Source: Thermoplasmata archaeon (GTDB lineage Archaea; Thermoplasmatota; E2; JACPAO01; JAHFTW01). Taken from it: a stretch of 64,000 bases of DNA. Positions 36,590-49,886 of this stretch are shown piece by piece. Under the pieces are notes generated by a model. That model did no database searches, had not been told where the DNA came from, and saw nothing but the letters and a program-made list of their open reading frames with translations. Where the stretch lies: contig JAXDQS010000010.1 of the NCBI GenBank assembly GCA_034667725.1, forward strand, positions 32,001-96,000. The letters are read 5' to 3'. The stretch's first letter is position 1, and every line of letters starts with the position of its first letter. A program made the translations under genes and the position numbers.

Positions 36590-36723
36590 CCATTGACGCG
36601 TCATGATGGCCAGGACACCTCGGTCATTGGCGCGTGACGATCGTCAAGATGCCGCTTCCAGGGGCTCCGCCCCTTGGAACCCCGACTGACTCCGGCTACT
36701 GCCGCGTGACGATCGTCAAGATG
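36590..36723 (-). repeat. Three copies of the DRG-GTPase 3' end
   Basis: 21-bp identity at 36631-36651 and 36703-36723; minus-strand translations ILTIVTRQ*, ILTIVTRQ* and VLAIMTRQW. Confidence 0.75.
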
Positions 36724-37814
36724 TCCTTGTCCTTCAGCTTGTGGTCGACGCCGACGGTCTGCCCCGGGAACTTGGCGCTCGTGCCCCACACCATGGCGTA
36801 GCGGAACTTCTTGCGGAACTCGCGGTGCAGCATGTCGCACACGGTGCCGACGTCGGTGTCCTGCTTGACGATGAGCGGCTCCTCCAGGTCGGCCTCCTTG
36901 CCGCGCGGCTTGAGGTAGACGCTGATGAAGTGCAGCGAGTCGTAGATGAAGTCCTTCGCGCGGTCGACGCCCCAGCCCTTCGCGGCCGCCATCGGGATCG
37001 ACTCGAAGCCCTGCTCCTTGAGCCAGCCCGCGACCTCGTTGTACTTCTGCTCGCCGGCGAGGTCCACCTTGTTGACGAGGCAGACGGCCGGGATGTAGAC
37101 GCGGTTGCCCGCCATGTGGTCCACCAGGTCGTCGGCGGTGATGTCCTCGCGGATGACGACGTCGGCGTTGCGGACCTTGAACTGCTCGATCATCTCCGCC
37201 ATCTCCTCGACGGTGAGGTGGGTCTGCTTCTTGGTGACCTGGATGTTGATGCCGCCGCGGTCGGTGTAGTAGACGGCGATGTCCTTGGGCCGGCGGTTGA
37301 TGCGGATGGCCGACTGCTCCAGCTCGCGGATGATGATGGGCAGGTGGTCGTACGCCTTGGCGCAGTCCAGCGTCACCAGGATCATGTCCGAGTTGCGGGC
37401 CGCCGCGATGACCTCCTTGCCGCGGCCCTTGTTCAGGTGGGCGCCCGCGATGATGCCGGGCATGTCGAGCACCTGGATGTCCGCCGAGCGGTGGTGCAGC
37501 ATGCCGGGGATGACGGTCAGGGTCGTGAACTCGTAGGCCGCCATGGCCGACGTCTCCTGGCCGGTGAGCGCGTTCAAGATGGTCGACTTGCCGACCGATG
37601 GCAGGCCCACCAGGCCCACGGTGGCGTTGCCGGACTTCTTGACGGCGAACGAGACGCCGCCGCCCCCGCCCATCGAGGCCTGCTTCTCTTGCTGCGCCTT
37701 GAGGGCCGCGATCTTGGCCTTGAGCTTCCCGATATGGAACTCGGTGGCCTTGTTCTTCTGGGTCTTGAAGATCTCGGCCTCGATCTCCTTGATCTGGTCG
37801 GCGATCGTCCCCAC
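36696..37814 (-). CDS. DRG-family (OBG class) GTPase with TGS domain
   Basis: NKATEFHIGKLKAK, GLPSVGKST, YEFTTLT, LDMPGII, NKVD and FRYAMVWG motifs; TTATA box about 27 nt upstream. Confidence 0.95.
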   Translation of the reverse strand: MGTIADQIKEIEAEIFKTQKNKATEFHIGKLKAKIAALKAQQEKQASMGGGGGVSFAVKKSGNATVGLVGLPSVGKSTILNALTGQETSAMAAYEFTTLTVIPGMLHHRSADIQVLDMPGIIAGAHLNKGRGKEVIAAARNSDMILVTLDCAKAYDHLPIIIRELEQSAIRINRRPKDIAVYYTDRGGINIQVTKKQTHLTVEEMAEMIEQFKVRNADVVIREDITADDLVDHMAGNRVYIPAVCLVNKVDLAGEQKYNEVAGWLKEQGFESIPMAAAKGWGVDRAKDFIYDSLHFISVYLKPRGKEADLEEPLIVKQDTDVGTVCDMLHREFRKKFRYAMVWGTSAKFPGQTVGVDHKLKDKDILTIVTRQ

Positions 37815-38010
37815 GGCAAAGCCGCCGACAGAAGGGGCGTATAAGAGGGAGCCGGGCGGGGGGGGGCACCGTAGCCTCCCTGGAGCCGCGCCTTAACGGT
37901 GCGTGGCGGGCCAGAAGGGGTGTGTAGGCGGCCAAAAGGTGGCCAAAAGTGTGCGTGGCGGCCGGTCGGGCGGCCAAAAATGGAGGGAGAGGAGAAGGTG
38001 TGTGCGGGAG

Positions 38011-38640
38011 CTATTCGCTTTGGCTGTCGCATCTGCTTGCGATGGCGGCGGGGGCGGGGCCGTAGTAGCTGAACGCGAGGGTGGCGCGCACTTCCTGGGC
38101 GTAGGCCAGTCCCAGGCTGTCCAGGTGCAGGTGGAAGCGGGTGGTGCCGTTGAGGCCGTCAAAGGACTGGTTCAGGGGCGAGGGGGCGGCCTGCCAAGCC
38201 TCGCCGCTGCCCTCGGAGGCGATAGTTAGGTTCAGGCGCTCGGCAAGCGGCGATTGCGGCGCCCAGGCCGCCTGAAAGGTGCCGTTTAGCATGGTGGCCG
38301 GGCTGCCTTGGGGCCACCACACCACGACGCAAGCCGTCCCCGCGCTGCTCAAGCCTTCCCGCGACAGGGATGGCGCGGAGACTGTCAGGTTGAAGGTGCG
38401 GTTGAAGGACTCCAGGCGCGGCGGAGCGGGCTCCACGACGGGGGCCGGCTCCGGCTCGGGCGGCGGCGGGGCGGCGGCAGGCACCTGGACCGTCGTGGTG
38501 GAGTAGTGGTGATGCTCCGTCTGGGTCTGGGTCTGCGTCATGGTGTGCGTGTGGTCGGGAATTGTCCGACCGGCACAACCCGCCAAGGCAGAGGCGGCGA
38601 GGACGGCGGCGAGGACGACAAGGGTAGGAAGGCGGGGCAT
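38011..38640 (-). CDS. Putative lipoprotein
   Basis: Lipobox ALAGC; Thr/His/Pro-rich linker; beta-rich C-terminal domain. Confidence 0.72.
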   Translation of the reverse strand: MPRLPTLVVLAAVLAASALAGCAGRTIPDHTHTMTQTQTQTEHHHYSTTTVQVPAAAPPPPEPEPAPVVEPAPPRLESFNRTFNLTVSAPSLSREGLSSAGTACVVVWWPQGSPATMLNGTFQAAWAPQSPLAERLNLTIASEGSGEAWQAAPSPLNQSFDGLNGTTRFHLHLDSLGLAYAQEVRATLAFSYYGPAPAAIASRCDSQSE

Positions 38641-38687
38641 GGGGTTTCCTTGCGCGCATGAGGCGCAAGACCGCCGAGAAGGGACCT

Positions 38688-38717
38688 CTACTTACGAACC
38701 GTTTGCGCCTAGTTTGT
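38688..38717 (-). promoter_or_regulatory. 30-bp island promoter/operator motif, copy 1
   Basis: CTACTTACGAACCGTTTGCGCCTAGTTTGT (+ strand), upstream of the 38640 gene. Confidence 0.7.
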
Positions 38718-38723
38718 TGGTCG

Positions 38724-39209
38724 CTAGAAGCCGCAGCCTGCCGGGCTCGGCGCGGGGTCGGGCCAGTTCGGGTCATGCTCCCAATCCAGCTTGAGCGTGA
38801 AGGGAAGCTCCAGGACGGGGCTTCCGGTGTCTTGGATGAACACTTGCCAACCGATAGGTTCCGTCTGGTTCCATTCAAGGCGCAGCGGCGACGGGCCTTC
38901 GACTTCCTCCAGAACCTCAGTGTAGTTGCGCAGAAGCCCGAGGCGAAGGGTTTCCCCCAAGCCGGGCCGGGCATCCCAGGTAGCGACCGCAACCAAGTGC
39001 CGGATGCCCAGGGCGTTGAGGGTCACACAGTTGGGGCCCGTCGAAGTGCCTTGCGTCGTGTCCGTGAATGTTCCGTTCTGCCAGTAGGCGCCATGCTGTA
39101 GTTGCGGCTCGGCAGGCGGCTCCGTCGTGCTTGGGCTCAACGTGTCGGCGGGTGCGCCGCAACCGGCCAATGCGAGAAGGACGACGGCGAGAGTGGCGGC
39201 GGGCATCAT
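38724..39209 (-). CDS. Putative lipoprotein (similar to 38011-38640)
   Basis: Lipobox ALAGC; CV...A.W....L.E.L.L...PSPL pattern shared with the neighbour. Confidence 0.72.
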   Translation of the reverse strand: MMPAATLAVVLLALAGCGAPADTLSPSTTEPPAEPQLQHGAYWQNGTFTDTTQGTSTGPNCVTLNALGIRHLVAVATWDARPGLGETLRLGLLRNYTEVLEEVEGPSPLRLEWNQTEPIGWQVFIQDTGSPVLELPFTLKLDWEHDPNWPDPAPSPAGCGF

Positions 39210-39258
39210 GGTCGGCGCTCCAGGTTGGAAGGAGAGGAAAAGGGTTGGCGCTTGGCGT

Positions 39259-39942
39259 CTAAGCGAAGTGCATGACGATGCTGATGAGCTTGCCTTGGCC
39301 GTAGGGGTCGGCGCACTCGACCACCACATCGCCATCCTTGGCATCGGCGTCGGCGCCGCAGCGGCCCTCGCCGTCGCCGGGCAGGCCCAGTTCTTCGCAG
39401 TGGCCGGCGTTGGTTCCCGCGGCTCCGACGCTACTGCACCACACAACCTCATTGTCGGGGCGACCGTCGGCGTTCTCGTCCTTGGTGTTGGTGCCGCAGG
39501 TCATCGTGCCCTTGACACTGCCAGGGACGTTTTCGTCCACGGTGATGTCCCAGTTGCCGCCGTCCTCGACGCAGGCGTCCTCGGCCATGACCCTGCATCC
39601 GGTCAGGGTGCAAAAGCCGTTCACGGCGCCGCTGATGCCGCAGACGCTTCCAGTTGCGACCGGCGGTGTGCTGGCTTCGGCGGAAGGCTCCGGGCCGGAG
39701 AGCGCGGTCAAGCGGAAGTCGTCGAGGATGCGCTCGACTTGGCCGGGCAGCGACAGGGCGACGGCCGTGAGTTCTCCGTTCAGAGACACTTCTTGGCCGC
39801 TCACAAAGATGATGGGCGTGCAGGCGACCTGGGGCACGGGCACACTCTGGGCAGGCATGGCGGCGAAGGTCGCTGCCAGCAGCACGGCGGCACAGGTCAA
39901 GGCGGTCAAGTGCGGGCGTTGGGGGGATGGGGGTAGGTCCAT
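39259..39942 (-). CDS. Secreted Cys-rich hypothetical protein
   Basis: Signal-like segment then about 10 Cys; alternative start at 40038. Confidence 0.65.
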   Translation of the reverse strand: MDLPPSPQRPHLTALTCAAVLLAATFAAMPAQSVPVPQVACTPIIFVSGQEVSLNGELTAVALSLPGQVERILDDFRLTALSGPEPSAEASTPPVATGSVCGISGAVNGFCTLTGCRVMAEDACVEDGGNWDITVDENVPGSVKGTMTCGTNTKDENADGRPDNEVVWCSSVGAAGTNAGHCEELGLPGDGEGRCGADADAKDGDVVVECADPYGQGKLISIVMHFA

Positions 39943-40063
39943 GGTCTTGCTTCCTGGGTGCGCATGGACCGCCACAAGGACCGACAACCGAGTGTTGGTG
40001 AACACGGGGGAGAGAGGCAAAGGGGCGTGGCGGCCCATGCGCAACGGCAAGAAGCGCAGGCGC

Positions 40064-40093
40064 CTACTTACGAACCGTTTGCGTCGGGTTTGT
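40064..40093 (-). promoter_or_regulatory. 30-bp island promoter/operator motif, copy 2
   Basis: CTACTTACGAACCGTTTGCGTCGGGTTTGT; first 20 nt identical to copy 1. Confidence 0.7.
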
Positions 40094-40098
40094 AGGGT

Positions 40099-40590
40099 TC
40101 AAATCCGCTCCCGCATGAAGGCCTCAACCGTCAGCACCCGCACCAAATCCTGGCCCGGAGGCCCGATTGGTTGAGTCATGCGCACCAAGGACTCGGCCCG
40201 ATAGACGATATGATGCGCTTCGTTCCAAACGTGCTGCTCAGGCAGGCATTTCGTTGGGTCGTAGATGCAGGCGATGATATCCTCAAGAGCTTCGCAAAGA
40301 CCTTGGAATTGCCAGCCGAGCGGCGAAGCCATGTCCACTGCGGCGTAGGGGATTCCGATGAACTCCTTGACCCCGTAATAGGGAGTATCATCATGCTCCT
40401 GCACCGGCAGGAGTGGGAAAACGCCTCCTGGGCTGTCAGGCAATGGGGTGAAGGCGGGTGCGTAGCGGCCCCCCATCGAGAACGCGCAAACGGGCTGCAT
40501 GGGGTCCGGTTCGGCTTGGACTGGAACGGTGGCAGCCAGCAGGGCGGCGAGGGCGATTGCAAGTAGGGCTTTCTGCATAGGTTCACTCAC
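40099..40590 (-). CDS. Secreted hypothetical protein
   Basis: Signal peptide MQKALLAIALAALLAATVPVQA; overlaps the upstream stop. Confidence 0.65.
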   Translation of the reverse strand: MSEPMQKALLAIALAALLAATVPVQAEPDPMQPVCAFSMGGRYAPAFTPLPDSPGGVFPLLPVQEHDDTPYYGVKEFIGIPYAAVDMASPLGWQFQGLCEALEDIIACIYDPTKCLPEQHVWNEAHHIVYRAESLVRMTQPIGPPGQDLVRVLTVEAFMRERI

Positions 40591-41369
40591 GTTTGGGGAC
40601 CGAAGGTCCAGGTTTCCTGGACGACAGATTTGGCGGTGTCAAGTGGGACCGGCGGGGGCGCTATGGCGAGGGTCGGAACCAGCCCTTCGCCGTCGAGGAC
40701 GCCCGCCACGGCACCAATCGGATTCTGTGAAACGGTATGTAGCGCGTCGAACCAAGTGCCGGTCCCACTCTGGTATCGAACTTCCGACTGGAACGGGTCG
40801 TTGCCAGTCGAACCTTCACCCGCGAGTTGGAGGTCGTAGGCGAAGGCGTCGGATTCCAGGCTCAAGGCAGCGAGGGGCGAGGATTCGTCCCAAGCAAACG
40901 TCGCGTTTACAGAAGCAAATCCCCAACTGTTCAGCACCGCAGCCAGGGCCGGGTTGTCGGTGGCGGTTTCGAGGCTGTAAACGTCCGCAAACTCCCCGTC
41001 CACGGCATTGGGCGGACCTACCGGGACGGGCACGGTCATCAGGTGAACGTCGCGCAGGACGGTTGTGTTGTCCAGCGTGATGGACTCACAACTGAACAGG
41101 ACCACCTGAGTCCGGATAGCGGGACCTGTGCCTGCCGTGTAGCCGGGGGGGAGCCGGGCGGCCACGCGTTCGCCGTCTGCCTGGAACGCCCCATAGAAGG
41201 CCGTGCAAGCCAACTGCAGCTCGCGCACCTTGGCCTCGGGGCAGCACGGCGGTGGGGGCAAGGGCTGGTCGGTTGTCGTGGTGTCCGTGGTGCTGGTGGA
41301 GTCGGTTGAATCCGTAGGAGTGCCGCAGCCGGCGACCAGGAGCGCAAGCACAAGCAGGGCGGCCTTCAT
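40587..41369 (-). CDS. Putative lipoprotein
   Basis: MKAALLVLALLVAGC lipobox; Thr/Pro linker; ATGA coupling. Confidence 0.75.
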   Translation of the reverse strand: MKAALLVLALLVAGCGTPTDSTDSTSTTDTTTTDQPLPPPPCCPEAKVRELQLACTAFYGAFQADGERVAARLPPGYTAGTGPAIRTQVVLFSCESITLDNTTVLRDVHLMTVPVPVGPPNAVDGEFADVYSLETATDNPALAAVLNSWGFASVNATFAWDESSPLAALSLESDAFAYDLQLAGEGSTGNDPFQSEVRYQSGTGTWFDALHTVSQNPIGAVAGVLDGEGLVPTLAIAPPPVPLDTAKSVVQETWTFGPQT

Positions 41370-42883
41370 GCGGATGCCTCGGCGGGCAAGTTCTGGGGCA
41401 TTGCGGAGGGACCTGAGGGGCGGTAGTAGAGGCTTGTGCGGCCCTTCCGGCGGCGTCCGACTAGGAGGCCTGCGTCCACTAGGGCGCGGGCGTGGAAGGA
41501 GAATAGTTGTTGGGAGACTTCCAAGCCGCGTTCTTGCAGCTTGGCCCGCACCCGGTCGCCTTCGATGCCGCTGCCCTCGGGAATGGTGGCGTAGATGGCT
41601 CGGCGGACGGGATGGGCAAGGTAGGCTTGGGGGTCGGCGCTGGCGCCCGCCAAAGCATAGTAGCGCAGGCCGCGCACGGCGAAGTGGCGAACGTGGTGGC
41701 CGCGGCGCAGGATGCCAAGGTGGAACATGGCCAGTTGCCTGCTTAGGCCCAAGTGCAGGGCAAGGTCCTTGGCGGTCTGGGGGCCAAGGGCCAAGTGTTG
41801 GAGCATGGCCCGCCGCAAGGGGTTAGCCAGCGGTTCGGCGCGGTTGAGGCCCGCCAGGAGGTTGGGCAGGAACCGGACGGCGACTAGCAGCAGGGCCGCG
41901 GCTCCCGCGACGGTTCCCGTAGCCACGACAAGACTGGATGCTGAGATGACGGCCACGCCGTCCGCCGCCAGTTTGACCGCTTCCCCCGTCATGCTCCAAG
42001 TGCTTCCTTGCGCCGTTGCGTCGGAGCGCAGCCGGAACGCTCCCGTGGCCTCCAGGAGCGCCGCGTCGGGATTGACGTAGGCCAAGGCAGGTCCGGAGGG
42101 GTTCTTGACCCCATGAAGCTGCACCGTGCCGCTCAGGTCCGCCTCCAAGGATTCGGCGTAGATGCGCCAGCCGTCGCCCGAGAGCGGCGCGGCGACAAGC
42201 ACACCCTGGATGGCAAGGTAGCGGTGGACTTGGCCGTGCTGCCCTACGGTTCCGAACGGGTCGCCTGCATCGGTGTAGGTGGTCGTGGCTTCGATGCGGC
42301 GGGCGCCCAGGGTTGCCGTGCCGCCGTGGAACAGAACGGTCATGGCTTGCTCAGGCAGGGTTGCGTTGAGGGTGCCGGACAAGCGCAGGGCGGTTGCGTC
42401 GATGCGGCTGGAATGGCCCTCGAAGCTCGGAGAGAAGCCGGGGTTGGGCGAAAACAGCAAGTGGTTAGGGCGTCCTTCCAGGGTCGTTGCCAACAAGGAT
42501 ACGGCAAGGGTGCCCGAGGCGGGAAAAAGCGCCGTGGTGCCGTTCGGAATGGCGGACAACTGAATGGAACCCGTGTAGGTGAAGTCCTCAAGGGTCCGTT
42601 CCAGGGGCGGGTTCTCTGCCTCGACGCCCGGCAGCGGGCCCGGCGGTTCGGTTTCCGTGGAGCCTGTGCGCGCTTCCAGGACGACGACGCGCAGCGCCGT
42701 CCCTGTCAAGCTCAAGCCTGAGTGAGTGTCCGCCGCGATGGCGGCGGCTGCCGCGTGGGCGTTGAGGCTGCCCGTGATGCGCACCGGCCCGGCGGCCGTG
42801 GCCTCCAGCTCCAGCGGGACCGCCGAAGCCGCCGGCAAGACAACCAGGACAGCCAGGGCGACAAGCCATCGCAACATCGGCAC
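41366..42883 (-). CDS. Membrane-anchored regulator: extracellular domain + TM + tandem ArsR-like wHTH
   Basis: Signal peptide; ~300-aa beta-rich region; TM; NPLRRAMLQHL...DLALHLGLSRQLAMFHLGIL and HPVRRAIY...FSFHARALVDAGLL. Start may be ATG 42877. Confidence 0.8.
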   Translation of the reverse strand: MPMLRWLVALAVLVVLPAASAVPLELEATAAGPVRITGSLNAHAAAAAIAADTHSGLSLTGTALRVVVLEARTGSTETEPPGPLPGVEAENPPLERTLEDFTYTGSIQLSAIPNGTTALFPASGTLAVSLLATTLEGRPNHLLFSPNPGFSPSFEGHSSRIDATALRLSGTLNATLPEQAMTVLFHGGTATLGARRIEATTTYTDAGDPFGTVGQHGQVHRYLAIQGVLVAAPLSGDGWRIYAESLEADLSGTVQLHGVKNPSGPALAYVNPDAALLEATGAFRLRSDATAQGSTWSMTGEAVKLAADGVAVISASSLVVATGTVAGAAALLLVAVRFLPNLLAGLNRAEPLANPLRRAMLQHLALGPQTAKDLALHLGLSRQLAMFHLGILRRGHHVRHFAVRGLRYYALAGASADPQAYLAHPVRRAIYATIPEGSGIEGDRVRAKLQERGLEVSQQLFSFHARALVDAGLLVGRRRKGRTSLYYRPSGPSAMPQNLPAEASA

Positions 42884-42906
42884 CTATGCCGAACGACGCT
42901 CTCCAA

Positions 42907-42936
42907 GTATTTGAGAACCGTTTGCGCCGGGTTTGT
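42907..42936 (-). promoter_or_regulatory. 30-bp island promoter/operator motif, copy 3
   Basis: GTATTTGAGAACCGTTTGCGCCGGGTTTGT, about 30 nt upstream of the wHTH gene. Confidence 0.65.
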
Positions 42937-43587
42937 GAGTCGCTATAACGGGGGCTAGGCGCCGTGCGGCCCCCAAGGCGACTCGCCCGCCCTCGCCCTG
43001 CTCTCCAGTCCAGGCAGGCGTCCCGCCTGCCCTCAGGCGTTCGCCTCGCCTGCCTGCTCGCCTACTTGCCCAGTCCCGCCCGCCTTTCCAACAGGAGAAA
43101 ACGCCTCGCCTCGCCTGCCTCGCCCTAGTGCCTCGCCTTCTTGCCAAACTCGCCCGTCGCCCTCTTGAGCCACAAGAAGGCGGGGAGAGGCGGGGGGAAG
43201 CGGGAAGAAGTGCGGCGCCTCGCCTTCCCCCAGGCGCAAGGTCGCCCGAAGGTCGCGGGAAGCTTCGCCGCGCCTAGAGGGTGAAGGTCGCCCATGCAAA
43301 CCTCCCGGCGACCCTCCCAACAGGAGGGGAAGGTAGGTCTAGCCCTTAGGTGGGGCCCTAGTTTGACTAGTTCCGCGCCGAGCTTGTTTGACAAGACCCT
43401 GGGCACGGTCCCCCACGGTGCCTGTCGTGTTAGGTTCCCCGGCGCCCCATGCAGTAGGCGCCATGCCCCGAAGCGCCCCGCCCCTCCTGTCGCAAGACGC
43501 ATCCCCCGCGACTCCCCGCCCAAGTCCCGATTCGTTTAGGTTGGCCCCGCGCCCCAGCCCGCATCGCATGACCTGGACGGTGCCCCC

Positions 43588-44088
43588 ATGACGAATCGGT
43601 GCCCAACGTGCGGCAAGACGTTCCTGGCGCCGCAAGGCTTGGGCGGCCACATCGCGCACAGCCGCGACCCCATGCACCGGCCCCGGCGCCAGCCGAGCGC
43701 CGCCGTGGCCGCCGCCCACGCCCAGGCCGCCGCGCCCAGCGCGCCCGCGCCCCGGCCCGCCCCAGCCGCGCCAGCCGCCCGGCCGGTGGCGCCCGCGCCG
43801 AGCGTGGCGCGGCCCGCGGTCCAGGCCGCGCCGCAGGCGCCGGCCATGCCGCCCGGCGTGTCGCCCGCCGTGGCGCGGTGGCTCATGCCGGAGACATGGG
43901 CCACGCTTGGCGCGCAGGCGGCCGAGCGGCAAGCGCGGCGGATAGCCGAGCGCGAGGCGGAACGCGCCCGTGCTGCCGAGCGGGCCGCCCAAGAAACCGC
44001 CCGGCGCGCCCAGGCCGAACAAGGCATCTGGGGCCGCTTGCCGGGCTTCGACCCGCGCAAGCCCAAGCCCGGCACGAGGTGGCCCTGA
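43588..44088 (+). CDS. C2H2 zinc-finger protein with Ala/Pro linker and coiled coil
   Basis: CPTCGKTFLAPQGLGGHIAHSRDPMH; AERQARRIAEREAER coiled coil. Confidence 0.75.
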   Translation: MTNRCPTCGKTFLAPQGLGGHIAHSRDPMHRPRRQPSAAVAAAHAQAAAPSAPAPRPAPAAPAARPVAPAPSVARPAVQAAPQAPAMPPGVSPAVARWLMPETWATLGAQAAERQARRIAEREAERARAAERAAQETARRAQAEQGIWGRLPGFDPRKPKPGTRWP

Positions 44089-45062
44089 TGCCCTCGCCAG
44101 GGTCGAACGGTCGTTTCCTGGAACCGGCCATTGGTCGGTCGGTGGCCGCCGCCCACGCTGAACGGTCGGTCGGTGGTCGGTTGCTTGGTCGGCCGGTTCC
44201 CGCTCATCACTTGGTCGGTCGGTCGCATGGTCGGCCGGTTGGTCGGTTGAACGGTCGGCGGGCGTGGTTTCCGGCGCCGCCGACCATTCGACCCTGGCGA
44301 GGGTTGGATGTTCGCACGCCGCGCCATGCCCGCTGCGTTCGCGTTCGTTCGCGTCCGCCAGGAGGTTCTTCCGTGTTCGTTCGGCGTTCGCAAGCCCACG
44401 CGAACACGCGCCCGCGAACGGCGGACCCTGGCCAGGGCATCGTGTTTGGCAAGGCGCAGCCGGGCCTCCAGCCAGCCAAGGGCTCCATTCAGCCAGCCAC
44501 CCGCCGCCAGCCAGCCAACCAATCAATCAGCCCCAGGAAGCCCGGCCAATCAATCGGCCAGCCTGCCAGCCAGCCACCCGGCCAGCCGCGCCCCCCACCC
44601 ACTTCACCAAACAGCCAGCCAGAGGCCGCGCCAAACACCGGACCCTGGCGAGGGTCGCGTGTCCGCACGACGCGCGGACAGCCATGGGGACGCGGACACG
44701 GGGACGCGGACAAGGACAGGGACGCGGCCGGTCGCGGACAAGGACACGGACCAGGAAGGGAAGCGTCCCGGGACGGCCACGCGGACACGGACAGGGACGC
44801 GGACAAGGACAACCCCACCCTCATCGGGGACAAGGCTGCGGACAGCCATGCGGACACGCGACCCTCGCCAGGGTCGCAGCGCCTTATCAACCACCAGTCG
44901 CCGCCGAGTCGTGGAGTCGCTTTTGGCGAACTTGTGGCTTTGTGTCAGAACGAGCCACGCGGGCACCATGCGCCGCAACCGAAAACCGCCCATCGCCTCC
45001 ATGGACGGCTTTCGCTCCCATGCGTGCCTTTCTGCCAGAAGCCGCCAGGGGCGCGGCCATGA
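44088..45062 (+). CDS. Possible low-complexity ORF spanning the array
   Basis: TGATG overlap with the upstream gene and ATGA overlap with the downstream ORF; no recognisable domain; may be non-coding. Confidence 0.3.
   Translation: MPSPGSNGRFLEPAIGRSVAAAHAERSVGGRLLGRPVPAHHLVGRSHGRPVGRLNGRRAWFPAPPTIRPWRGLDVRTPRHARCVRVRSRPPGGSSVFVRRSQAHANTRPRTADPGQGIVFGKAQPGLQPAKGSIQPATRRQPANQSISPRKPGQSIGQPASQPPGQPRPPPTSPNSQPEAAPNTGPWRGSRVRTTRGQPWGRGHGDADKDRDAAGRGQGHGPGREASRDGHADTDRDADKDNPTLIGDKAADSHADTRPSPGSQRLINHQSPPSRGVAFGELVALCQNEPRGHHAPQPKTAHRLHGRLSLPCVPFCQKPPGARP
44089..44875. repeat. Array of five 16-bp palindromic nodes separating four inverted-repeat-closed, simple-repeat-filled cassettes
   Basis: Nodes GACCCT-N4-AGGGTC (some with terminal mismatches) at 44089, 44290, 44424, 44641 and 44860; fillers GGTC, GTTC, GCCA and GGAC. 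Confidence 0.85.
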
Positions 45063-45238
45063 CGTTCCCAACGACGCGGGAGGCCGCGAAGGTCGCCGGG
45101 GTGACCCCCCGTTTCAGGGGGCCTGCTTCAGTGGTGTTTCACTTGACGGGTTCCACGCCCAAGACCAGGAAAACCCAGGAGCCAAGCATGACCGAGGCGC
45201 GACCCGCCCCAGGCTTGGCGAAAGAGGTTCGAGCATGA
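45059..45238 (+). CDS. Small hypothetical protein
   Basis: ATGA coupling at both ends; preceded by GGGCGCGGCCATGA, the same junction as before the transposase. Confidence 0.45.
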   Translation: MTFPTTREAAKVAGVTPRFRGPASVVFHLTGSTPKTRKTQEPSMTEARPAPGLAKEVRA

Positions 45239-45435
45239 CGGAGTGCCCGGTGTGCCGCCGCGTGTTCCGGGACGCGCAGGGATGCGGCGGGCACCTCGCC
45301 ACCGTCGCAGACGACGCCCACAGCGCCCACCGCGCCGCCGTAGCCATCCGGCAGGCATTGACGCAGATGCCGCCGCGCCCCGGCGTGGCGGGGACCTTGC
45401 TGCGCGTCATCTTCGGCTTGAGGGCGCGGCCATGA
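45235..45435 (+). CDS. Small C2H2 zinc-finger protein
   Basis: CPVCRRVFRDAQGCGGHLATVADDAH; ATGA coupled to the transposase. Confidence 0.7.
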   Translation: MTECPVCRRVFRDAQGCGGHLATVADDAHSAHRAAVAIRQALTQMPPRPGVAGTLLRVIFGLRARP

Positions 45436-47015
45436 TTCAGTTTGCCAGCCTGCGCGCCAACGTCAGCCAGCAGGCGCTTGAGATTTTGCAGCACCCCGAC
45501 GCGGTTCTCCATGTCGGCAAGAGCAAGGACGCCAGCGAAATCTACGAGGTGCTAGGCCCCAAGACCGGCGCAACGCGCATCACGGTCTGGAAGGGCCATG
45601 ACGACCTGTGGCATTGCGACGACGACCACCACGGCCATGCCAACCAGGACGCGCCGTGCATCCACCTCATAGTGGCGTTCGTTCGGCTCCAGCACATCGC
45701 CATGCCCAACACCGCCGCCACGGTCCACCGCAAGGGCCGCGACCGCGCCGCCGAGCGCCGCGCATGGCGCCGCATGGCCAAGCGGTTCCCCGAGGTCTTG
45801 CAGGCCATCCTAGAAGCCGGGGTGCCCGCCATCATGGCCACCCCCAAGCCCGAGCCTGAACCGAAGGACAAGCCGGAGCCCGGCGCGGAACCCGACGCCG
45901 CGAAGGAGAAGGGCGGCCACCCCAAGCGCGACCTAAGGGCCGTCGTCCACCAGGCCGTGATGCGCGTCCAGCAGCGCGTGAGCTTCGAGGCCAGCTCCGG
46001 CCTTGACAACCCGTGGGGCGCCTGCTGCGCCTCCACGCTCGAACGCTTCCACGCCGACCCCGACTCGGCGCGCATCATGGAAATGCTCGTGGCGCTCTCA
46101 ACGTGGCCGCTGCATGACCTGGAGCGCCGCCTCGACCCGGACGGAACCGGCTTGTCGCCGCAGCACTTCCGCGCCTACTACGACGAACGGTATCGCCGCA
46201 GCAACGGCAAGAAGAAGCCGAAGAAGTCGAAGCTCGACAAGCTCCCGCCCAACGCCGTCTTGTCCGCCGTGGACCTTCGGCGCCGGGCGCGGGAAGCCGA
46301 GGCCGAGGCGAAGCGCCTCGCGTCCCTCTTGGAGAAACCCAGAAAGCATACCTGGGCCTTTGCGGAGTTCTTGTGGGGCTACGAGTCCACCGCCATCCTG
46401 TCTTACCACTTCCAGGATTCACCCTTCGGTGAGGCGCCGCGCTTTCTTGCCTTGCTGGAGCGGGCGCGCTTCATGCTGGAGGTCAAGGAGATTGGCGGCG
46501 ACAAGGCGTATGATGCCAACTACATCTTCCAATACGCCGACTATCACGGCATCGAGGCGCACATCAAGATACGCGACACCGGCATCCCCACCAACAGCGA
46601 CCACTCGAAGAAGTATCGCAAGGCCGCCATGCTCGGGAGCATCATGGACCCGGAGGGGCATGAGGCGAAGGCGAACCTGCGCAACAACGCCGAAACCGGG
46701 AACGCCGCCTTCAAGGCCCGACTCGGGGACGAAATCTATTGCAAGGGTCGTCGCCGCGATGGCAAGAAGGACGCCACCGCCCTTCAGGTCGAAGTCGGGT
46801 GCATGGTGTTGGCGTGGAACATCCAGCGCCTCATCCACATGGAAGAACGCCACCCCCCGACCGAGGACCGGCCCGGCGTGGTGGTGGACTTCACGGAAGG
46901 CGCCGAGCGCCTACGCTCGCGGCCGTGGCGCAGCCTATCGGACATGGAGCGCGAGCTTCGCAAGCGGTTCCCGCCCAAGGGCGAAGGGGGGGTGCGCGAA
47001 CAATGGAAACCCTAG
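45432..47015 (+). CDS. SWIM-zinc-finger + DDE transposase (IS4/IS5-superfamily-like)
   Basis: WHCDDD...PCIH (SWIM-like); catalytic candidates PDGTG, GDKAYD and RNNAET; C-terminal EVGCMVLAWNI. Confidence 0.8.
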   Translation: MIQFASLRANVSQQALEILQHPDAVLHVGKSKDASEIYEVLGPKTGATRITVWKGHDDLWHCDDDHHGHANQDAPCIHLIVAFVRLQHIAMPNTAATVHRKGRDRAAERRAWRRMAKRFPEVLQAILEAGVPAIMATPKPEPEPKDKPEPGAEPDAAKEKGGHPKRDLRAVVHQAVMRVQQRVSFEASSGLDNPWGACCASTLERFHADPDSARIMEMLVALSTWPLHDLERRLDPDGTGLSPQHFRAYYDERYRRSNGKKKPKKSKLDKLPPNAVLSAVDLRRRAREAEAEAKRLASLLEKPRKHTWAFAEFLWGYESTAILSYHFQDSPFGEAPRFLALLERARFMLEVKEIGGDKAYDANYIFQYADYHGIEAHIKIRDTGIPTNSDHSKKYRKAAMLGSIMDPEGHEAKANLRNNAETGNAAFKARLGDEIYCKGRRRDGKKDATALQVEVGCMVLAWNIQRLIHMEERHPPTEDRPGVVVDFTEGAERLRSRPWRSLSDMERELRKRFPPKGEGGVREQWKP

Positions 47016-47905
47016 ACCCGAGCCGCCTTCATCGCCGCGTCCTTGCCGGGGCGCGGTGCATCCTCGCCGCCTCGGGTGTTGAGCGCGTGGACCCGGACCA
47101 TTACCGGGTCGCCGGGGCGCGGCCGGGAGCGGAACCGGTGCGCGTCTATCGCAGGGGCGGAACGTGGCGGTGCAGCAGCGACCGCCGCCACCACGCGGCG
47201 CAGCCGTGCGCACACATCCTGGCGGTCTTGGAGGTCGTGGGCGCCGTGCGCCTTCCGGCCACCGTGAGCCCCATTGCGGAATCGGCGCGGCGGGACGCCT
47301 TGGAGGCCGAAGCGGCGCGCCTCTTGCCGGAACGCCTGCCTGGGGTCTTGGCGCGTATGCTCGACGCCAGCCCCGCCGCGGCGCCACAGGCGCCGGGCAA
47401 GGGGCGCCCCAGGTGCAGCCCTATCGCGGTGGCGCATCAGGCCGTCATGCGCGCCGCCACGCGGGGCACCCTCAAGTCGGCGGGAGCCTATGCGCCTGTG
47501 AGCCGGGCCACCGTGCGCCGGTTCCTGGCGGAAGGCAAGACCGACGCGCTCCTGCGCGCCATGAAGGATTGGACCTTGGCCGCCGCCCGGCCCCAGGACG
47601 CCACCCGCCCCGACGCCCTCAACCGGGGCGCCTTGGCGTTCTCGACGCCCCTCGGCCCGCTCTTGTTCCTGGCGTCGTGGACGCCAACGTATGGGCTTCT
47701 TGCGCGCCTGGACCCCATGCCCTCGGAGCCGGTCATCGAGGCGCCCGGCGCCGAGGAAGCGGCCCGGCGCTTCACGGCGCTTCTGGGCGCGGAGCTTGTG
47801 AGCCGCGACCCGGCGGCCTTGGCGAATGAGGCCCTTTGCGCGGCCCTTGCCTGGAACCTTGCCCGGCTTGTCGTGGTGGACCTGGAACGCGGCGGGACCG
47901 CGTAG
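47003..47905 (+). CDS. Paralogue of the SWIM-DDE transposase lacking the catalytic core
   Basis: WRCSSD...PCAH, GRP...HQAVMR and NEALCAALAWNL match the upstream protein; no DGTG or DKAY motifs; open frame of 300 aa. Confidence 0.72.
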   Translation: METLDPSRLHRRVLAGARCILAASGVERVDPDHYRVAGARPGAEPVRVYRRGGTWRCSSDRRHHAAQPCAHILAVLEVVGAVRLPATVSPIAESARRDALEAEAARLLPERLPGVLARMLDASPAAAPQAPGKGRPRCSPIAVAHQAVMRAATRGTLKSAGAYAPVSRATVRRFLAEGKTDALLRAMKDWTLAAARPQDATRPDALNRGALAFSTPLGPLLFLASWTPTYGLLARLDPMPSEPVIEAPGAEEAARRFTALLGAELVSRDPAALANEALCAALAWNLARLVVVDLERGGTA

Positions 47906-48154
47906 TTTCGCCTGCCTGCGAAACGGTCAAGCGGGGTGGATGCGTGGTCGGCTTGCCCGCCCCGATGGGACGGGCAGGGGGCCACGCCCCCTAACCGCCA
48001 ACGGTCGCGGAGTTTGGCGCCCCAGGCATCCGGCCTGGAAGCGCCCGCGACGGCGGCCCGGCCGACCACTTCCGGCAACCCGGAAATGGTGCAGGCAGGC
48101 CGTCGTCGTGGTGTAGTTCCCGCGTAGCCCGACCATCGAAAAAGAACGGCTTGG

Positions 48155-48517
48155 ATGGGGCGCGACCTTGGACCCGGCCCACCGGAAGGAAGGGGGGTCG
48201 GGACCAAGGAGGACCCTAAGACGAACCCCATTCGCAACCCCAAGCCTGAATCTCGAACGTCCTGCCAGGAGGATTCCTGGCGCTTTTTGGCCTGCGGCAG
48301 CAGCCTCGCCGCCTTGCTGGCCAGCCTTGCAACGTGGCTTCCGGTGCCGGTCGCCGCGAAGGCGCTGCTTTGGACGGCGTTCGCCGCCGTCCTGGTGCTA
48401 GTCGTTGCTTGCTTCGCCCTAGTCGGCTTGTGCGTCATGCGGCAGGAAATCCTCCGCTTGACCCACCGTGCAAGGGCGGCCAAAAGTGTGCGTGGCGACC
48501 CTCCGAGGTGTGCGTGA
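48155..48517 (+). CDS. Possible 2-TM membrane protein crossing the island's right repeat
   Basis: Two hydrophobic helices; start uncertain. Confidence 0.4.
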
Positions 48518-48653
48518 GCGGCCACAAGCGGGCGTGGGGGGCCAGAAGTCCCTAGCTATGCACCGAAGCTACGGTGCCGCCGGGCGGGGGCCGCGACCAT
48601 CGTTCGACGCCCGTCCGAGCGCCCTTATAGCCCACAAGGTGGGATGGGCACCC

Positions 48654-49886
48654 ATGCTCCGCGCCGTGGCCGTTCTCCTTGTGGCCGTCCTCGTGGCGGC
48701 CCCCGGCCTCACGGTGGCCCAGTCTGGTCCCAGCGGCGGCCCCGACCGCCAGGACCGCGACCGGGACGGCGTGCCGGACAAGTCCGACAACTGCCCCGCC
48801 ATCGCCAACCCGGAGCAGAAGGACGCCGACGGCGACGGCAAGGGCGACGCGTGCAGCTCCCAGTGCAAGGATGGCGAAGGCCAGGACGGCAGGGCGTGCC
48901 GCGCCTGCAAGCCCGAGGCCAACCGCTCGTGCGACCTGCGCGGCCCGGGCGACCGCCGCTTCGTGACGCTCACCGTGGCGCCCGACGGCATCCAGGAGAT
49001 GCGCGTCGAGGGCCTCCTGGTCCTCAAGGCCGCCCGCCTGCTCGGCGGCACCCCGGTCCAGAGCGAGGCGCACGGCAAGGAGCTGGTGCTGCGCCAGGAC
49101 GGCGGCAAGATGGTCGTCGTCGACCAGCCCGAGGGCCTGCTGCGCTACCAAGGCGAGGCGGGCCTGCGGTTGGAGCTGCCCGACGGCGCCGAGGTCCGCC
49201 GCGACGGGCCCGGCGCCGCGGTGCGCATCGACGGCCGCGTCGCCATGGTGCGCGCCGACAACCTCACGCTCGACGGCACCGCCTTGGTGGTGCGCGGCGC
49301 CGCCTCGTTCCACCTCACCCCGGCCGGCAGCGAGGCGGGCCGGCGGCCCGAGGTCGAGCGCGCCATCCAGGACCGCCGGCTGGGCGCCGAGGTCGACGTC
49401 AAGCGCGGCGCCGACGGCGTCGAGGTCGTGGCCTACGACGAGCTGGAGGTCGAGGTCGAGGGCGCCGACGGCGGCGCTTCCGCGGCCGACCCGATCCGCA
49501 TCCAGGTGAGCGCCGAATTGGCGGCGGGCCGGACGGTCGTGGTCAACATCGACCCGGCCGTGCTGGAGGGCTCCCGCCTGGCGCTGCGCTACTACGACGT
49601 CAACGGCGAGGGCGCCGGCGAGACTCTGACGGAGGTCGTGTTCCGCAAGGCCGCCAGCCTGCAGGACGTCCTGGACGCGACGGACGACGCCGGCCAGCCC
49701 GAGTACTGGGTGGTCGAGGACGAGTCCGGCCTGCACGTCATGGTCAGCGTGCCGCACTGGAGCACGCACGTGTTCACCATCGCGGGCCTGGCGGAGCCGA
49801 CGGTGTTCGTCGGCCTGCTGGTGGGCGCCGCGGGCGTGCTGGTGGCGGCGGTGGCGCTGTTCGTGCCGCGGCGCAGGACCTGGTAG
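48654..49886 (+). CDS. Secreted surface protein with a TSP3 repeat and C-terminal TM anchor
   Basis: Signal peptide; [13 protein letters not shown]...DGKGDAC; VPHWSTHVF before TM + RRR; TTATAG box upstream. Confidence 0.8.

Follow-up and report, generated by a model that had tools for sequence, protein, structure and literature searches.

A tandem of an intact DDE transposase gene and a core-deleted paralogue in an archaeal cargo transposon

Why should the gene for an intact transposase be followed, and overlapped, by a related gene whose product has lost catalytic residues? This question is raised by two neighbouring genes, here called the long gene and the short gene, in a 64,000-nucleotide stretch of DNA from a Thermoplasmata archaeon. 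This stretch (the window) is contig C10:32001-96000 of a metagenome-assembled genome of 2.3 Mb with ~70% GC and 90% completeness. An earlier note on this DNA had described a tandem of an intact transposase gene and a related shorter one, and both reading frames are there (Table 1); it had gone on to propose a domesticated recombinase with a catalytic and a structural subunit, or a built-in inhibitor, rather than a plain insertion sequence (IS). We found that the pair is the transposition module of a cargo transposon and that its short member is under purifying selection. From its sequence, the short protein is best read as a non-catalytic accessory that would serve the transposase as a regulator or as an architectural subunit. 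Our literature searches turned up no account of the family, nor of any prokaryotic DDE element with a dead paralogue in tandem.

The pair occupies the right end of an insertion of 10.7 kb (window positions 37865-48578). The host genes that flank the insertion, a GTPase gene (36696-37814, minus strand) and a gene for a 410-amino-acid (aa) protein (48654-49886), are 10.8 kb apart in the window. We searched sibling genomes at the DNA level and found the same two genes 0.07-2.2 kb apart in seven sibling species of the genus, where the site is without this element (G002, G004, G005, G006, G007, G008, and G012). Homology with the siblings ends at 37837-37863 on the left and resumes at ~48595 on the right. 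Exactly at these breaks in synteny sit GGCACCGTAGC and its inverted copy, which form terminal inverted repeats (TIRs) of 9-11 bp, and outside each of them is the 12-bp sequence GCCGGGCGGGGG; two extra G in a G-run separate the left copy of GCCGGGCGGGGG from the left TIR. The 9-mer CACCGTAGC occurs four times in the 2.3 Mb genome. Two of these occurrences are inverted and lie at the synteny breaks, each beside GCCGGGCGGGGG, and a third closes an 86-bp relic outside the window (C10:274673-274758) that resembles the left subterminal region. The relic ends in the right terminus TACGGTG, has a degenerate left terminus (CACCATA), and shows no obvious duplication. Both ends of the insertion carry three to five units of GTGCGTGGCG / GGCCAAAAG that point the same absolute way, being direct rather than inverted. 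Related elements on two metagenome contigs, L029 and L030, share this right-end architecture and have comparable termini: the right end of L030 is 79% identical and has the terminus GCTGCGGTG, the terminus of L029 is CAGGTG, and homology stops at the terminus. Genes within the island have a GC content at third codon positions (GC3) of 0.74-0.91, compared to 0.97-0.99 in the flanking host genes.

The TIRs, the target-site duplication, and the empty site in siblings are the marks of a cut-and-paste DDE transposon. Those of a simple IS are missing: the TIRs, one 7.6 kb upstream and the other 0.67 kb downstream of the pair, lie 10.7 kb from each other, with at least six unrelated genes between them. 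The earlier statement that no TIRs surround either gene is true locally, but such repeats exist at the ends of the island, and their distance and the cargo genes between them agree with the view that this is not a plain IS. The copy number and the target-site duplications had been put forward as a check. TIRs and a 12-bp duplication are present at the island ends, but instead of multiple near-identical copies, which were not found in the genome, there are one complete copy, one partial and diverged copy on another contig (C1), and the relic. The C1 copy is colinear over ~10 kb, adjoins a tRNA gene, and carries different cargo; it has the left-end motif cluster but lacks the right end, and its short gene, being truncated, encodes 243 aa.

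Because the insertion has TIRs and a duplication and is missing from siblings, the pair belongs to a transposon and therefore does not consist of domesticated host genes. A domesticated host recombinase pair that acts on the adjacent repeat array could account for the low copy number, the divergence of the copies, the purifying selection on both genes, and the position of the array next to the operon. This proposal is already largely refuted, and we give it next to no credence: besides the bounded insertion at a site that is empty in seven siblings, the second copy elsewhere in the genome has different cargo, the codon usage looks foreign, the array motif is unique to this copy, and the family is patchy, being present in 11 of 41 relative genomes. 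In a phylum-wide sample of 401 genomes, the only hits were in 3 of the 18 genomes of the family to which the window belongs. At the corresponding intergenic site in one sibling (L040, G002:C6:175300-178100), there is a different insertion of ~1.3 kb that is rich in G/A; this site may be an insertion hot spot.

The long protein possesses the DDE triad and the RNase H-like fold of the DDE_Tnp_1 (IS4/IS5-type) superfamily. We worked with a 68-sequence alignment of the family and a 37-sequence alignment (A1). Five residues, D237 (PDGTG), D357 (GGDKAY), R417, E421, and K428, are invariant across the 37 members and are all present in the window protein, so the D(GTG), D(KAY), and E motifs that had been picked out before are intact. 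Reading the sequence against the Y-x2-R-x3-E-x6-K signature, we find R417, E421, and K428 in place and Ala414 at the Tyr position. In searches with the AlphaFold2 (AF2) model of the long protein (predicted local distance difference test [pLDDT] 87.5), the best matches among solved structures were Tn5 transposase (Z 15.9, root-mean-square deviation 4.1, 259 residues aligned) and Tn4430 TnpA (Z 14.3). Sequence profiles gave weaker signals. The window protein scores under every curated cut-off checked (Pfam and NCBIfam), with 40.2 bits against NCBIfam IS5_2 (NF033579), for which the cut-off is 140, and no match at E<=1 in a Pfam scan, PF01609 included. All 37 relatives match NF033579 at E<=0.01, each of them weakly (best 1.9e-21), and 30 of the 37 match PF01609 (DDE_Tnp_1); by sequence, IS5 (NF033579) and PF01609 are nearest to the family. 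A search of PDB sequences with the family profile returned no match.

The N-terminal finger had been called SWIM-like, a label that is weakly supported. Its signature is conserved only as C..D..CxH (C62, D65, C76, and H78), as opposed to CxCxnCxH in SWIM, and the Pfam SWIM profile (PF04434) gave E 0.55 on the short protein and no match on the long protein or the 37 relatives. Statistical support from Pfam is thus lacking, but the predicted N-terminal domain of the long model is similar to ZSWIM8 (Z 5.5, residues 1-88), which is the sole support for the name; the same domain matched Shu2 with Z 3.8 (residues 1-90).

BLASTP relates the long and short proteins over ~260 N-terminal residues (E 4e-12, 25% identity) and again over a late helix (E 5e-05); between neighbouring long and short proteins, the N-terminal regions are 29-32% identical. 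In the alignment, the short protein retains the N-terminal finger (C57, C69, and H71), the long helix, the GRP..HQAVMR helix-turn-helix region, strands b1-b3 with the Asp of RPD, and the late NE..C..AWNL.RL helix. The finger, the GRP..HQAVMR segment, and the NE..C..AWN helix had all been noticed before, and the models agree with the alignment. Missing are the insertion between b1 and b2 and ~100 residues that hold D357 and the E421/K428 helix. The claim that the short paralogue lacks both DGTG and DKAY is therefore half right: the DKAY region is gone, but the b1 Asp (RPD) is kept and only the GTG of the first motif is lost. In the AF2 model of the short protein (pLDDT 76.9), b1-b3 are followed by two helices where the core is expected. 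Profile and structure predictions, which had been suggested for both proteins, yielded a Tn5-like fold for the long one but no significant match for the short one in a fold search of the PDB, where Tn5 appeared at a probability of 0.15-0.18 only. By alignment and model, the short protein follows the Inh/InsA/KP-type pattern of a transposase-derived protein that retains an N-terminal part and has lost the catalytic residues.

Is such a gene maintained? The tandem of a long and a short gene, with an identical 13-nt overlap, is present at four loci (56-82% identity): the window, C1, L029, and L030. Comparing C1 with the window copy, the long proteins are 61% identical and the short ones 69%. A survey of gene neighbourhoods thus shows the conserved pairing that the earlier note proposed to look for, but not conserved arrays, because the GACCCTGGCGAGGGTC nodes beside the pair are confined to the window locus and other repeat words occur elsewhere. 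We calculated the pairwise ratio of nonsynonymous to synonymous substitution rates (dN/dS) across the four loci by the NG86 method. The short gene gave 0.27-0.36, which is as low as the 0.14-0.47 of the long gene. Because of the high dS, these are upper estimates, and YN00 gave 0.13-0.14 where it was computable. All length differences among the short genes are in frame, and the GC content of the short gene by codon position (0.76/0.59/0.86) is coding-like. Because dN/dS is low, the length differences are in frame, and the GC content by position is coding-like, we conclude that the short gene is under purifying selection and is no pseudogene. Neutral evolution, which would have undone the earlier note's interpretation, is not what we observe, and its description of a diverged yet uninterrupted reading frame stands. 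For a maintained derivative without catalytic residues, an accessory role is the natural reading.

A tree of the shared N-terminal region has two starred clades that lie apart: one, on a long branch (1.44 substitutions per site), unites the four paired long proteins, and the other unites the four paired short proteins. In the best tree, all eight short forms fall on one side of a branch, with a support of only 40 and with long branches meeting there. The short gene is, on this phylogeny, an old paralogue and no recent copy of the long gene beside it. Distant short lineages, no more than 35-41% identical, have core deletions in similar positions. Could the short reading frame still be a decaying, functionless remnant of a second transposase copy? 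The truncated short gene and missing right end of C1 would suit such a history, and long stop-free reading frames are common at 70% GC. We nevertheless consider it very improbable, given the dN/dS values, the in-frame length differences, the conserved start overlap, and the coding-like GC3, together with the recurrent core deletions and, with weak support, the grouping of the eight short forms.

The frame of the short gene extends without a stop for 88 codons before its ATG (from 46739), and there is a run of seven G (G7) at 46987-46993. A programmed -1 frameshift that fuses the long to the short protein was considered as the principal explanation and rejected, the G7 run not being conserved in L030.

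Two zinc-finger genes precede the pair (zf166 and zf66, Table 1). The zf66 protein is 54% identical to the N-terminus of a 178-aa zinc-finger/transmembrane (TM) protein in the C1 copy, and a finger of the zf166 type heads the proteins encoded upstream of long or short genes at eight other loci (L008, L009, L016, L025, L031, L032, L036, and L044). In many relatives, the upstream protein carries the finger CPxC..F..QG.GGH...D..H, usually followed by a proline-rich linker and a TM helix; several of these proteins additionally end in a GD.(Y)W(L)D..LGY.G tail. The window zinc-finger proteins are without the TM segment seen in relatives. Typical intact family members (~450 aa) have the finger partner and no short gene. 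Distant short forms (P0057-59, P0066, and P0067) stand behind a finger protein, with no long gene in the available flank, and around the short form of L032 there is none for 10 kb in either direction. A C2H2 zinc-finger protein is a third conserved partner. The stand-alone zinc-finger and short-gene module at L032 (1-8000) comes directly after a Wadjet-like JetABCD cluster and an NYN/PIN gene.

These modules invite another explanation, in which the short protein and a membrane-anchored zinc-finger protein choose targets or exclude related elements instead of acting on the element's own ends. Zinc-finger and short genes do occur without a long gene in other genomes, once beside a Wadjet/NYN defence cluster, and the zinc-finger partner is conserved with long and short forms alike. 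We judge such a targeting or immunity factor to be improbable: its support is purely contextual, no target preference is known beyond one G-rich 12-mer, and the zinc-finger proteins of the window have no TM segment.

The family as a whole is rare and confined to a single Thermoplasmatota lineage. We detected 66 family hits and five clusters of full-length short-type proteins in a set of 1.84 billion representative proteins, and the hosts of the homologues are named by their sources as Thermoplasmatota or Thermoplasmata archaea. Looking for additional short forms, we hit two loci in genome contigs, both already in our set, and none in metagenome contigs. Neither tblastn with a typical member as the query against plasmids and phages nor scanning of viral contigs gave a match, and there is thus no sign of a viral or plasmid home.

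Our preferred reading is that the pair is the module of a cargo transposon in which an active long transposase is accompanied by a short, non-catalytic accessory that restrains or regulates transposition; taken as a whole, we think this has an even chance of being correct. The long protein would be an active cut-and-paste DDE transposase that recognises the ends of the element (the 9-11 bp TIRs and the subterminal repeats) and makes the staggered cut that leads to a 12-bp target duplication. The short protein would be translated from the same message via the 13-nt overlap. With its N-terminal DNA-binding region and part of the core scaffold kept, it would be unable to cut and would serve as an accessory that takes up sites at the ends or in the subterminal regions, or associates with the transposase, and in this way restrains or regulates transposition. 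The C2H2 zinc-finger protein encoded upstream would be the third conserved partner of this machinery. We infer DNA binding by the short protein, through the N-terminal region that it retains, and a modulating effect on the transposase, which may be positive or negative, and likewise a contact between the two proteins. Because typical family members have no short gene, the short protein is probably an add-on that is unneeded for the chemistry. A regulator or brake is favoured because the short gene is absent from most relatives, which nonetheless transpose or at least exist, and because short forms persist with the finger partner alone, which fits a trans-acting DNA-binding regulator.

Several points weigh against this regulatory role. 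Binding of the short protein to DNA or to the long protein is putative, and with N-terminal regions only 29-32% identical the two proteins may recognise different sites. Classical IS inhibitors are encoded upstream of the transposase, whereas the short gene follows its transposase gene and is coupled to it. Subterminal repeats with the same orientation at both ends are unusual for transposase binding sites, and a set of one complete copy, one partial copy, and one relic gives no sign of recent activity. In addition, the paired long proteins sit on their long branch, and the long and short proteins retain partly complementary sets of the N-terminal residues that are conserved in the family. These last two observations agree with an obligate heteromer at least as well as with a brake.

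In an obligate heteromeric transpososome, the short protein would be an architectural subunit that binds the subterminal repeats and pairs the unlike ends, and the long protein would supply two active sites. Such an arrangement would hard-wire the division between catalytic and structural roles that homomeric transposases reach with identical protomers. It would explain why the 13-nt translational coupling is conserved at all four loci, why the paired long proteins lie far from unpaired relatives, why the short protein keeps DPDH and PCxHILAV while the long protein keeps NPWG and LWP, and why the ends of the element are asymmetric, with two types of motif. We regard it as possible but rather unlikely, since most family members have no short partner, some short forms have no long gene nearby, and the contact between long and short proteins is putative. 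A prediction of the complex of both proteins returned a score of 0.00, which is "no answer" and counts neither for nor against binding. A broader proposal is that this is a new archaeal cargo-transposon family run by a three-part machine consisting of the DDE transposase, an obligate non-catalytic paralogue, and a C2H2 zinc-finger protein that is usually membrane-anchored. We put this forward tentatively and think it unlikely to hold in full; if it is true, the obligate paralogue hard-wires the split between catalysis and architecture in the transpososome.

The repeat array between the two zinc-finger genes had been named as a plausible substrate. Stretches of differing short repeat words separate its GACCCTGGCGAGGGTC nodes. 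The genome has the node motif at no other place, and in the elements at C1 and L029 the interval from the finger gene to the long gene contains other repeat words. We rejected the nodes as a substrate of the transposase because they are unlike the termini and no other copy has their motif; the ends of the element itself are the obvious candidates. A long open reading frame drawn across the array has no codon periodicity.

Searches of the cargo genes against Pfam and PHROGs identified only HTH_20, in the 503-aa protein. A 497-aa gene beside the short form of G009 was considered as a homologue of the gene for this protein and is not homologous. Between the short gene and the right end, an open frame on the plus strand (48128-48514) has two predicted hydrophobic helices (~48280-48440); no gene was called there, and its product may be a small membrane protein. 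Contig C12 (G000:C12:59950-60327 and 67113-67704) matches part of the array (window 44490-44856) at 68% and the 176-aa cargo gene at 79%, and no transposase was found there. Rfam and tRNA scans, run on 40-50 kb and on the window as a whole, revealed nothing relevant.

Table 1. Features of the 10.7 kb element, in window coordinates
Feature	Position	Strand	Remark
Long gene: 527-aa DDE transposase, predicted Tn5/IS5-like RNase H fold, N-terminal zinc-finger domain	45432..47015	+	ATG at 45432
Short gene: 300-aa paralogue without the second Asp and the Glu/Lys helix	47003..47905	+	ATG at 47003
Overlap of long-gene stop and short-gene start: 13 nt, ATGGAAACCCTAG	47003..47015	+	Short frame is -1 of long
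zf66: 66-aa C2H2-like zinc-finger protein	45235..45435	+	4-nt overlap with long-gene start
zf166: second C2H2-like zinc-finger protein, 166 aa (CPxC..F..QG.GGH)	43588..44088	+	
Non-coding array: five GACCCTGGCGAGGGTC hairpin nodes, alternating orientation	44087..44876	.	Between the two zinc-finger genes
Left terminal inverted repeat, GGCACCGTAGC	37865..37875	+	
Right terminal inverted repeat	48568..48578	-	GCTACGGTGCC on + strand
12-bp direct repeat GCCGGGCGGGGG, left copy	37851..37862	.	Putative target-site duplication
12-bp direct repeat GCCGGGCGGGGG, right copy	48579..48590	.	
Left subterminal repeats (GTGCGTGGCG / GGCCAAAAG units)	37897..37990	+	
Right subterminal repeats	48474..48550	+	Absolute orientation as at left end
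Six cargo genes: 176, 161, 216, 159, 260, and 503 aa	38011..42877	-	

How does the pair compare with known systems? In Tn5 (IS50), the inhibitor Inh is an N-terminally truncated product of the transposase gene that lacks DNA binding and keeps the catalytic core. The likeness to our element is that the long protein has a Tn5-type DDE fold with an insertion domain (Z 15.9) and the R-x3-E-x6-K signature, and that one element makes a transposase plus a non-catalytic relative. Here, however, the relative is encoded by a separate, old paralogous gene whose product keeps the N-terminal region and has lost the core, the element is 10.7 kb long with cargo, and sequence similarity to Tn5 exists at the superfamily level only. 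By sequence family, the best match is IS5/DDE_Tnp_1 (NF033579 and PF01609), from which the element differs by the extra N-terminal zinc-finger domain, the 12-bp duplication, and the cargo and partner genes.

InsA of IS1 and OrfA of IS911 are encoded by an upstream frame of one gene, which is joined to the transposase by frameshifting. They resemble the short protein as small element-encoded proteins that share the DNA-binding part of the transposase and modulate transposition, as we propose here, but the short gene is downstream and encodes a diverged paralogue (25% identity) that keeps part of the RNase H scaffold. The KP repressor of P elements is an internally deleted transposase that keeps the parts for DNA binding and multimerisation and arises repeatedly from deleted copies. 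Internal deletion and loss of catalysis are common to both; the short gene differs in being a stable, old gene in tandem with an intact one, and short forms fall into one clade, with weak support. Phage Mu, a large transposable element, encodes a repressor and MuA with homologous N-terminal DNA-binding domains, so that a regulator (in our case a proposed one) and a transposase share homologous N-terminal regions within one element. The Mu repressor, in contrast, has no remnant of a catalytic core, is separately transcribed, and belongs to another protein family.

Among domesticated eukaryotic piggyBac enzymes, PiggyMac works in Paramecium with catalytically dead PiggyMac-like partners. A recent preprint describes piggyBat, a eukaryotic transposase, as an asymmetric tetramer (bioRxiv 10.64898/2026.07.15.738711). 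The likeness is that a catalytic transposase is combined with non-catalytic paralogues or protomers in structural roles, which for our pair is a proposal; the difference is that our pair is still inside an archaeal mobile element and that its heteromer is putative. Brakes and helpers derived from transposases are known; in most cases they are alternative products of a single gene or domesticated genes of eukaryotes. In the present element, a core-deleted paralogue that is a gene of its own and under selection stands beside the intact enzyme, together with a conserved zinc-finger partner, in an archaeal cargo transposon that still looks mobile. To our knowledge, large cargo transposons in archaea are poorly known, and this element offers a compact natural system for studying both how they move and how non-catalytic protomers contribute to DDE transpososomes.

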